A stretch of 7,781 nucleotides of DNA from a virus (Monodnaviria; Loebvirae; Hofneiviricota; Faserviricetes; Tubulavirales; Inoviridae): the IMG/VR virus record IMGVR_UViG_2529292923_000001. The stretch is one strand, 5' to 3'. The notes beneath the pieces are model-generated. The model was not told the origin of the DNA, ran no database searches, and was given only the letters and a program-made list of their open reading frames with translations. Made by a program: the position numbers and the translations under genes. How positions within the stretch are numbered: position 1 is the first letter of the stretch; the number at the start of each line of letters is the position of its first letter. Below, one piece after another: positions 2,862 to 4,385 of the stretch.

Positions 2862-4385
2862 TCACCCTGAAAGTGGCCCTGACTTCATCGGTATCAAGCA
2901 GCACACAAAAAGTATCCAGTTGATAATCTTTATTCCAGATATTGAATGTAAAGACAGGACACTGCCCCGTGGAATTGTCAGTGAAAAATCACGCGCAGAA
3001 GGCCACATATTCCACAATGGAGAAATGAATGATGAAGGCTCAGGAGATGAAATATCAGGCGTATCCACTGAAGGTGCAGTGCCAAAGTCATTTGACACAG
3101 TCACGTTAACATTTACCGTAGCATTACCTGTTACAGTGGTACTGCCAGAACCTGTTCCGACTCCAGCTCCTGTACCGCTACCCGTTCCAGTGCCTGTACC
3201 CGTTCCAGTGCCTGTACCCGTTCCAGTGCCTGTACCCGTACCGCTGCCTGTACCCGTACCGCTGCCTGTACCCGTACCGCTGCCTGTACCCGTACCGCTG
3301 CCTGTACCCGTACCACTGCCTGTACCCGTACCGCTGCCCGTACCTCCAACGGGCTTAAAACCGGGGTCAATAACAGGAGGGGTATATTTACCTCCAGAAT
3401 TGCTGGTATCACCACCTGGTGTCGGAGGAATAGCAATAACACCAGATTCTGTAAAACTTGCAGAATCACCGATGCGGAGGTCTACCGTAGAACGATAATT
3501 GTCTACGTCAGCAGAGGAATATTTCAATAAAAACGAAGATATCCCGCGATATTCAGAGAGGCCATCTAATTGTTCAGTCAGCCCGTTAAGAATATCTGCA
3601 ATATCCTGAGATGCCAGATTATTTCCAGAGAAAGATGGCACGTGGAGAGACGATGAGAATGGATTTTCAGTGGTTGCTGCCTCGCAAGTAGAATTACCAT
3701 CAGAATAAAACAGAACCTGACCGTTATCACAAAAAACAGAATCCTCCCTTAACGTTACTGACCAGAATACAAACGAACTCTGGGACCAGGAACCTCGAAA
3801 ATAATAAGCGTAGTAGAATCTGTACCACTCATTATCAACGATACTCTTCGGAGGAGTATAATAAGACGACTGAAGCGAGGCTTTATCTTCAGGAGGTAAG
3901 CACTGAATAACCCGCGCAGCAGCAGAAAACGGCGAAGTACTGGTAACGTAGCAATTATCAAACCCGCCATGCCAGGCCTTGACACCCGCACTCATGGCTG
4001 GAGTGTAATAAAACGCGTTATAGCCGTTTTTATCTAAAACCAATTTTGCCACCTCCTCAGCAAAAGGTTTTCCTGCGGCATAAATTCCAAGACTGACTGT
4101 AGTTACACCAAGACCGTAAGCCAGAGTACTCCACGACATTGCTGAAGCAGAAATCCCGGCAGATGCAGCATAATTTGATGCAAAAGACGCTGCCGCACGT
4201 GAATATCCTGATAACGTTGCCGAAATAGATGAGGCGCTGGCCCCCATTGCAGATAATTTGCGATTAATAATACCGGACAATTCAGAAGAAAATGTTGTGG
4301 TAGTCAGTGTCGCTGTTTCAGCACAGGCGTGATTTGTTAACAAAACGTACAATAGCGACACAGAAATATTTTTCAAAAAACTCAT
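2862..4385 (-). CDS. pIII-like adsorption / minor coat protein with Gly-Thr/Ser linker; C-terminal end apparently frameshifted
   Basis: 507-aa ORF with signal peptide ([22 protein letters not shown]), a long (GTGSGT)n linker and a downstream ISPLWNMW motif resembling the M13 pIII C-domain (NSPLMNNF). It is the largest ORF and lies between the major coat and pVI genes. The ATG is 5 nt after the upstream ORF stop. Confidence 0.8.
3157..3346. repeat. near-perfect 18-bp tandem repeat array encoding the glycine-rich pIII linker
   Basis: Units cctgtacccgttccagtg and cctgtacccgtaccgctg repeated about 9-10 times head to tail on the plus strand. On the minus strand they encode [12 protein letters not shown] repeats. 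Confidence 0.85.

Follow-up and report, generated by a model that had tools for sequence, protein, structure and literature searches.

A variable linker in a probable filamentous phage adsorption protein

In phage f1, the domains of the minor coat protein pIII are joined by flexible Gly-rich linkers that are invisible in the cryo-electron microscopy map (Conners et al., PMC10175506). In the UPΦ phages of Enterobacterales, no gene varies more than g3p, of which 95 variants were counted in 229 genomes, and this variation lies mostly in the number of GGGES-type Gly-rich repeats that join the N- and C-terminal domains (Shapiro & Putonti 2020, PMC7307601). In the account of Bruno & Bradbury 1997 given in the same paper (PMC7307601), the linker of phage IKe diversified rapidly in the laboratory, and no fitness effect was observed. 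The analysis described here concerns a linker of this kind in a filamentous (inovirus-type) prophage of Escherichia coli, IMG/VR record IMGVR_UViG_2529292923_000001. The whole 7781-base stretch of DNA that was analysed, hereafter the window, is a single unit of this prophage and carries nearly all of its genes on the minus strand. An open reading frame (ORF) in the position of gene III (2862-4385, minus strand; 507 amino acids (aa) in the window) holds a tandem array of 18-nucleotide (nt) units that encodes a Gly-Thr/Ser linker, and the number of these units differs between related prophages. The preferred reading, with a probability of about 0.8, is that the array encodes a variable, disordered Gly-Thr/Gly-Ser tether of a pIII-type protein, which would change its length by in-frame slippage or unequal exchange.

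The element resembles the UPΦ phages in that both are E. coli inoviruses that form tandem prophages at dif and vary in the number of linker repeats in gene III; however, UPΦ phages are related to IKe and I2-2 and carry the motif GGGES, whereas the motif of the window is Gly-Thr/Ser. With the Ff phages (M13/fd/f1) and IKe, it shares the position of the gene and the layout of the product (signal peptide, N-terminal part, Gly-rich linker, and C-terminal domain with a Cys pair and an anchor), and in Ff, too, the linkers consist of short tandem repeats, (E)GGGS. No sequence homology to the Ff protein is detectable, however, and the gene of the window has one long linker instead of two, in which Gly alternates with Thr/Ser instead of forming GGGS. 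Moreover, its N-terminal part is predicted by a low-confidence model to begin with helices and a hydrophobic stretch, whereas Ff N1/N2 are beta. The DNA units of the window are also far more uniform than those of Ff (95% identical) and should therefore slip more readily. Like the variable-number tandem repeats of bacterial and phage surface proteins, the array has a unit that is a multiple of three, high identity between units, a copy number that differs in close relatives, and a preserved reading frame; it differs from them in lying in a passive linker of a virion protein, not in an antigenic or adhesive domain, and in showing no phase switching. YpfΦ, CUS-1, and CTXφ likewise integrate in tandem by way of the chromosomal dif site (hipA side) and have paired inverted dif-like sites at their genome ends (PMC4266046), but no Gly-Thr repeat linker is reported for them in the literature examined. 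The polymorphism is thus of a known kind for g3p linkers; what is new is its occurrence in a different phage lineage, the Gly-Thr/Ser chemistry, and the unusually uniform units.

The repeat array and the Gly-X tract

Tandem Repeats Finder (TRF) places the core array at 3179-3344, with a period of 18, 9.2 copies, 95% matches, 0 indels, and a score of 255. It is coding on the minus strand; its consensus reads TACCCGTACCGCTGCCTG on the plus strand and CAGGCAGCGGTACGGGTA on the coding strand. A repeat search extends the 18-nt start-to-start register over 3143-3362. The earlier note, which did not mention the strand, had put an 18-bp tandem repeat at 3157-3346, and across this interval the self-identity at lag 18 is 0.90. 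In other 190-nt intervals of the sequence, the same measure has a mean of 0.276 (sd 0.034, maximum 0.40), and in 2000 segment shuffles it did not exceed 0.44; the repeat is therefore far above chance, and the coordinates that had been given for it are sound.

The array lies within a (Gly-X)n linker-coding tract that was delimited by translation and by decomposition into 6-nt units (3141-3347, minus strand; 207 nt, 69 aa). Its translation, in which the Gly-X alternation is strict, is G + GT + (GSGTGT)x6 + (GTGTGT)x2 + GTGTGS followed by a degenerate tail, and its near-perfect core spans 3177-3344. Three unit types, GGCAGC-GGTACG-GGTACA, GGCAGT-GGTACG-GGTACA, and GGCACT-GGAACG-GGTACA, are arranged in ordered blocks. 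In particular, the GSGTGT-coding units (3231-3338, minus strand) comprise one GGCAGC-type unit at 3321-3338, one GGCAGT-type unit at 3303-3320, and four GGCAGC-type units at 3231-3302, and the copy number of each of these types differs among relatives. The GTGTGT-coding units (3177-3230, minus strand) consist of two copies of GGCACT-GGAACG-GGTACA and a third that ends in GGTAGC; in relatives, this block contains from 1 to about 11 units. The count of about ten units proposed earlier is thus reduced to 9 clear units plus the degenerate tail, and the description of the units as near-identical holds (95% matches), whereas that of perfect repeats does not, as there are three unit types.

Length polymorphism among related prophages

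The ORF in the pIII position was found by megablast in 27 of 5426 complete E. coli genomes, with a best match per genome of 96.5-99.1% identity. In these genomes, the element mostly occurs as two or three tandem copies adjoining hipA (dif region). The GenBank phage collection gave no match, either to the whole window (megablast) or to the full product or its C-terminal domain (tblastn). Tracts were compared in 25 loci from complete E. coli genomes, six close IMG/VR contigs, and the window, which together contain 46 prophage copies; from each copy, the tract was excised between two conserved anchors.

The 46 copies carry 30 distinct tract alleles, which contain 31-58 Gly-X dipeptides; their linkers measure 63-117 aa, equivalent to 8-17 units of 18 nt. 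All of the alleles are in frame, and all length differences are multiples of 6 nt: the tracts fall into 14 length classes, of which 10 are separated from that of the window by whole 18-nt units and the others by 6 or 12 nt. The copy number of the repeat therefore varies between isolates, as had been predicted from the sequence, and it is clearly not identical in all related elements. The alleles differ by units gained or lost within blocks of identical units. For example, the tract of locus L003 equals that of L002 plus one GGCAGT-type unit, and the tract of L027 equals the window allele plus two GGCACT-type units, while the N-terminal 345 residues of the L027 product are 100% identical to those of the window. 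Some alleles (e.g., L004.2, L006, and L022) also contain duplications of multi-unit blocks.

Pace of change and quality of the assemblies

The first 39 copies contain 24 tract alleles, compared with 17 haplotypes for the other 1361 nt of the gene. Copies that differ by 0 single-nucleotide polymorphisms (SNPs) in the flanks carry tracts of 204, 318, and 348 nt. Over the 6.3-kb phage core, 2 SNPs separate L007 from L020, whose tracts differ by 114 nt; L002 and L003 are likewise separated by 2 SNPs and by 18 nt of tract; and L006 and L017, with 4 SNPs, have tracts of equal length in which the order of units is different. The tract evolves much faster than point substitutions accumulate, and it is no hypermutable switch.

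Differences of this kind might be artefacts of assembly, in which a short tandem repeat was collapsed or expanded. In favour of this view, seven indels in homopolymer runs of the window resemble sequencing errors, and contigs of short-read drafts often end at the tract; many 'partial' proteins of ~350-356 aa are found in the P0001 cluster. The alleles compared here, however, were taken from complete genomes that many laboratories had determined, mostly with long reads, which easily cover a tract of 200-350 nt. Moreover, identical complex alleles recur in independent isolates (L006 and L016, L010 and L011, L028 and L029) and in tandem copies, and the differences are structured as whole units in defined blocks, with none out of frame. 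An artefactual origin of the copy-number differences is thus highly improbable. Nearly all members listed for the 90%-identity clusters of P0001 and P0002 are 'partial', and several of them, ~350-400 aa long, end at or inside the Gly-X tract; short-read assemblies thus break at the repeat, and copy number can be taken from long-read assemblies alone, not from such drafts.

Assignment of the repeat-bearing gene

In intact relatives, the product of the repeat-bearing gene is 525 aa long. It opens with a signal-peptide-like sequence, which precedes an N-terminal part of ~320 aa and a segment rich in Pro. The Gly-X tract (residues ~346-415) comes next and leads into a C-terminal part of ~110 aa, in which two Cys are spaced 18 residues apart and a hydrophobic helix, followed by RS, closes the protein. 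Both the signal peptide and the C-terminal hydrophobic anchor with its short polar tail were recognized by eye in intact relatives; in the window, the signal-peptide-like N-terminus, read by eye from the translation, lies at 4320-4385 (minus strand). The N-terminal part (3351-4319, minus strand) is presumed to bind the receptor and belongs to a rare family, with only seven matches among 1.84 billion representative proteins. It opens with Ala/Ser-rich predicted helices and a hydrophobic stretch.

The gene occupies the gene III slot: as judged from Pfam and PHROG matches of its neighbours, it follows the major-coat gene and precedes the DUF2523/pVI, Zot/pI, and secretin/pIV genes. A contig of a 35% identical relative (P0123) shows the complete Ff-like order, namely G2P-type replication protein, Phage_DNA_bind, three small ORFs, the homologue, DUF2523, Zot, and secretin. 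Moreover, a Gly-rich, low-complexity linker between the N- and C-terminal parts is kept in position in four lineages. Synteny and architecture are the customary basis of inovirus annotation, and on these grounds the repeat-bearing gene very probably encodes an inovirus pIII-type minor coat protein. The earlier description of the repeat as the linker of pIII is thus supported by the gene III position, the signal peptide, the placement of the tract between N- and C-terminal parts, and the C-terminal anchor, with homology to g3p forming no part of that support.

A whole-protein homology search was flooded by unrelated low-complexity GT/GS proteins and yielded only two true clusters, both with representatives that are partial proteins. 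The C-terminal 111 aa found no match in a protein search whose sensitivity was limited by its word index, and sequence searches of the PDB returned only artificial or engineered linkers, low-complexity linkers, or nothing. AlphaFold2 gave a pLDDT of 47.7 for the N-terminal 345 aa (7-sequence alignment) and of 42.7 for the C-terminal 111 aa (2 sequences); these values are too low for a fold search with meaningful matches. The low-confidence C-terminal model consists of a helix, a beta-hairpin between the two Cys, and a terminal helix; it recalls the f1 C domain, but no weight is given to this likeness.

Thr/Ser-rich repeats are typical O-glycosylation substrates in other systems. The protein might be something other than an adsorption protein, and the tract no passive tether but an O-glycosylated or ligand-binding stalk, a structure in the packaged single-stranded DNA, or part of a gene on the plus strand, where an ORF of 192 aa (2920-3498), in which the repeat appears as PVPVPL units, runs antisense to gene III. 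Such proposals could draw on the failure to find homology to a known g3p and on the presence of that opposite-strand ORF. However, the gene III position, signal peptide, C-terminal anchor, and Cys pair all fit pIII, and no glycosylation gene is found in the 7.8-kb phage. In single-stranded form, the tract shows no notable folding relative to shuffled sequence (z = -1.2), and on this ground secondary structure of single-stranded DNA was also rejected as a promoter of slippage or as a DNA-level signal. The plus-strand ORF arises automatically from the repeat, lies antisense in a minus-strand operon, and changes its length with the repeat; it was rejected as a by-product and is not regarded as a gene. 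Explanations of this group are hardly credible.

Proposed mechanism and the role of selection

In the preferred reading, the array would encode a disordered (Gly-Thr/Gly-Ser)n tether that leads from the N-terminal part, presumed to bind the receptor, to a C-terminal domain that would anchor the protein in the virion tip and membrane. Misaligned pairing of near-identical 18-nt units may add or remove whole units, either by slippage during replication or by unequal exchange between copies, including tandem prophage copies or those of co-resident phages. Since each unit is six codons long, the gain or loss of whole units keeps the reading frame, and misaligned pairing would cause linker length to drift quickly between isolates. 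The range of 63-117 aa, which is roughly two-fold, appears to be tolerated, and most of the linker-length variation is probably near-neutral rather than tuned.

Several observations weigh against this reading. Pfam and NCBIfam searches at E<=1 gave nothing meaningful for the protein, and in PHROG it matches only families of unknown function. In an hhalign comparison with the M13 g3p C domain, the Cys loop alone was aligned, and the match was not significant (E=0.23). Thus, neither sequence nor structural homology to a characterised g3p/pIII was found, the AlphaFold2 models having a pLDDT of 43-48. Moreover, the tandem prophage copies within one genome nearly always carry the same allele, which indicates that the mutation rate is not extreme and that the tract is not hypermutable on the shortest time scales; it is also conceivable that assembly polishing of repeated prophage copies mimics such identity. 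A candidate case of within-genome slippage in RIVM_C037166, in which the tracts of two copies are 54 nt apart, was rejected, as these copies differ by 8 SNPs and thus represent two different phages and no slippage event. The conserved Gly-Thr composition shows that the tract is under some constraint. Finally, if a frameshift present in gene III of the window (see below) is real, the linker may have no function in that copy.

Linker length might instead be under diversifying or host-specific selection, serving as an adaptive 'ruler' for reach through O-antigen or capsule or around the pilus. It might also change host range or allow evasion of neutralising antibodies, with slippage supplying pre-adapted variants in the manner of a contingency locus. 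The diversity of the tract is very high relative to SNPs, and the repeat architecture has been kept or regenerated independently in four lineages. In addition, a link with host specificity has been raised for the UPΦ g3p variants (Shapiro & Putonti, PMC7307601), and it has been suggested that, owing to the long linkers, the pilus can be clamped by several pIII copies (Conners et al., PMC10175506). Set against these points are dif-integrated copies that share host flanking alleles: of six loci, five have LysR WP_001551125.1 and four have HipA WP_001551128.1, with LysR as the sole link for L004. Beside these alleles, and thus in apparently one host background, linkers of 63, 69, 81, 99, 101, 105, and 111 aa were found, with no preferred length, which argues against a tight length optimum. 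Moreover, a longer IKe linker brought no selective advantage in the work of Bruno & Bradbury 1997 as cited in PMC7307601, on/off switching is impossible because all of the changes are in frame, and the usual identity of tandem copies in one genome likewise speaks against this view. Selection on linker length is thus unlikely to be the main explanation of the polymorphism.

Other lineages and mosaic structure

Gly-Thr-rich linkers built from other repeats occur in three further lineages. In a second E. coli lineage (L033-L035), the N-terminal part of the protein is 63-65% identical to that of the window and the C-terminus almost identical; its repeat is a 12-nt unit (GTGT) present 21 times, and three contigs show three lengths. 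A divergent O158:H23 prophage (L026) has an 18-nt unit (GTGTAT) in 10.2 copies, and the 35%-identical relative mentioned above (P0123, locus L036) has a 54-nt unit in 2.7 copies. The Gly-Thr-rich composition and the position of the linker are therefore conserved, whereas the DNA repeat has been replaced lineage by lineage.

Comparison with L033/L034 over window positions ~3040-4600 revealed DNA identities of ~55-70% in the upstream small gene and the N-terminal part of pIII and of 70-88% in the linker zone, as against 92-100% downstream of ~3040, where the end of pIII, pVI, and pI are located. This mosaic boundary inside gene III indicates that the presumed receptor-binding head was exchanged on a conserved assembly module. 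The array might be regarded as a selected evolvability device, in which rapid in-frame changes in length would tune the reach of the head across host surfaces, and the arrays of co-resident phages would provide a recombination joint close to the module boundary that favours exchange of heads onto a conserved C-terminal/pVI/pI assembly module. The mosaic fits such a joint only partly, however, as identity rises sharply at a point ~100 nt downstream of the repeat, outside the tract, and the proposal as a whole is quite unlikely.

The module of secretin, Zot, pVI, pIII, and coat genes is also found together with another replication and integration module (L001, L023, L024, and L026). The latter comprises a 'replication endonuclease', an IS110-family (RNA-guided) transposase, and, at the other end, a phospholipase D family gene. 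Instead of dif, these versions occupy yahJ/yahK, ybiB/hcxB, or sanA/yeiS. The AF60 genome holds both types of module, with pIII linkers of 63 and 117 aa.

Gene order and state of the window copy

On the minus strand of the window, the Rep_trans replication initiator (5468-6694) is followed by a 111-aa ORF of the size of a single-stranded DNA-binding protein (5123-5458) and then by small ORFs. A major-coat-like gene (4695-4970; PHROG 2186, E 4.3e-14; weak match to Pfam Phage_Coat_B) lies upstream of the repeat-bearing gene, and a DUF2523/pVI-like minor coat gene (2503-2787; Pfam PF10734, E 2.7e-9; PHROG 974) lies directly downstream of it. The Zot/pI gene extends from 2491 downwards, and the secretin/pIV gene occupies 253-1533; both are also on the minus strand.

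The window differs from its closest relatives, from which it is 7-8 SNPs distant, by a 99-nt in-frame deletion after 1596 and by seven single-base indels, all in homopolymer runs (243, 306, 1756, 1785, 2784, 2965-2968, and 4993). In particular, a run of four G on the coding strand (C4 on the plus strand, 2965-2968) has five bases in intact relatives. The loss of this G shifts the frame of gene III, so that the last 51 residues of pIII, which include the Cys pair and the membrane anchor, are replaced by 33 out-of-frame residues; an out-of-frame remnant that encodes the C-terminal end with the membrane anchor is still present at 2809-2904 (minus strand). The indels also shift the frame of pI/Zot (1756 and 1785; an ORF of 241 aa versus 352 aa), of the beginning of pVI, and of the C-terminal end of the secretin. 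The other 21 copies of the core alignment lack all seven, and the frame of gene III is intact in every other lineage-1 copy with an annotated or translated coding sequence. With indels about as frequent as SNPs (ratio near 1), sequencing error is favoured over decay; thus, the seven indels are probably sequencing errors and otherwise mark a defective prophage. Should the source assembly be of such quality, the count of nine units in the window would also call for caution.

Integration sites and a second coding repeat

A search for an exact dif site found none in the window within 3 mismatches; dif-like half-sites were later spotted by eye. Two inverted dif-like sites, AGTGCGCACAATGGCGTTATGTATAAA and, across the ends of the window, the reverse complement of AGTGCGCATAATGTACACGCGTTATGTT, flank a GC-rich hairpin, GGCCGCTGCG...CGCAGCGGCC (7703-7729, 7732-7762, and 7768-7781 joined to 1-15). 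This arrangement resembles the folded, single-stranded attP of XerCD-integrating phages of the CTXφ type. The cut that delimits the window falls precisely within the dif-like core, and the length of the window is that of one tandem period of the prophage in strain E700025 (7934 nt) less the differences of 54 nt and 99 nt.

A second in-frame tandem repeat is located inside pI/Zot at 1678-1697 (minus strand); it consists of 2.2 copies of GACGGCGAA on the plus strand and has a Ser/Pro-rich product. Strain 48956 (L005) has one 9-nt unit fewer, with a Zot coding sequence of 1050 nt versus 1059 nt. A weaker 9-nt array was reported by TRF at 1777-1812.

Implications

A prediction made from raw sequence, namely that a near-perfect in-frame repeat would be accompanied by length polymorphism, has been borne out in public genomes. 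The finding leaves the understanding of infection by filamentous phages unchanged, and a specialist would not be surprised by it. Its practical consequences concern the typing and comparison of these prophages. Short reads do not allow reliable typing or assembly of gene III in this prophage family, as contigs of drafts are interrupted at the tract. The tract provides a high-resolution marker with which these prophages, integrated at dif, can be tracked in clinical E. coli, enterotoxigenic and bloodstream isolates among them. Moreover, comparisons of 'gene III variants' should separate alleles of linker length from true changes in the receptor-binding domain. The results extend the known polymorphism of g3p linkers, so far of the GGGS and GGGES types, to a linker of the Gly-Thr type.

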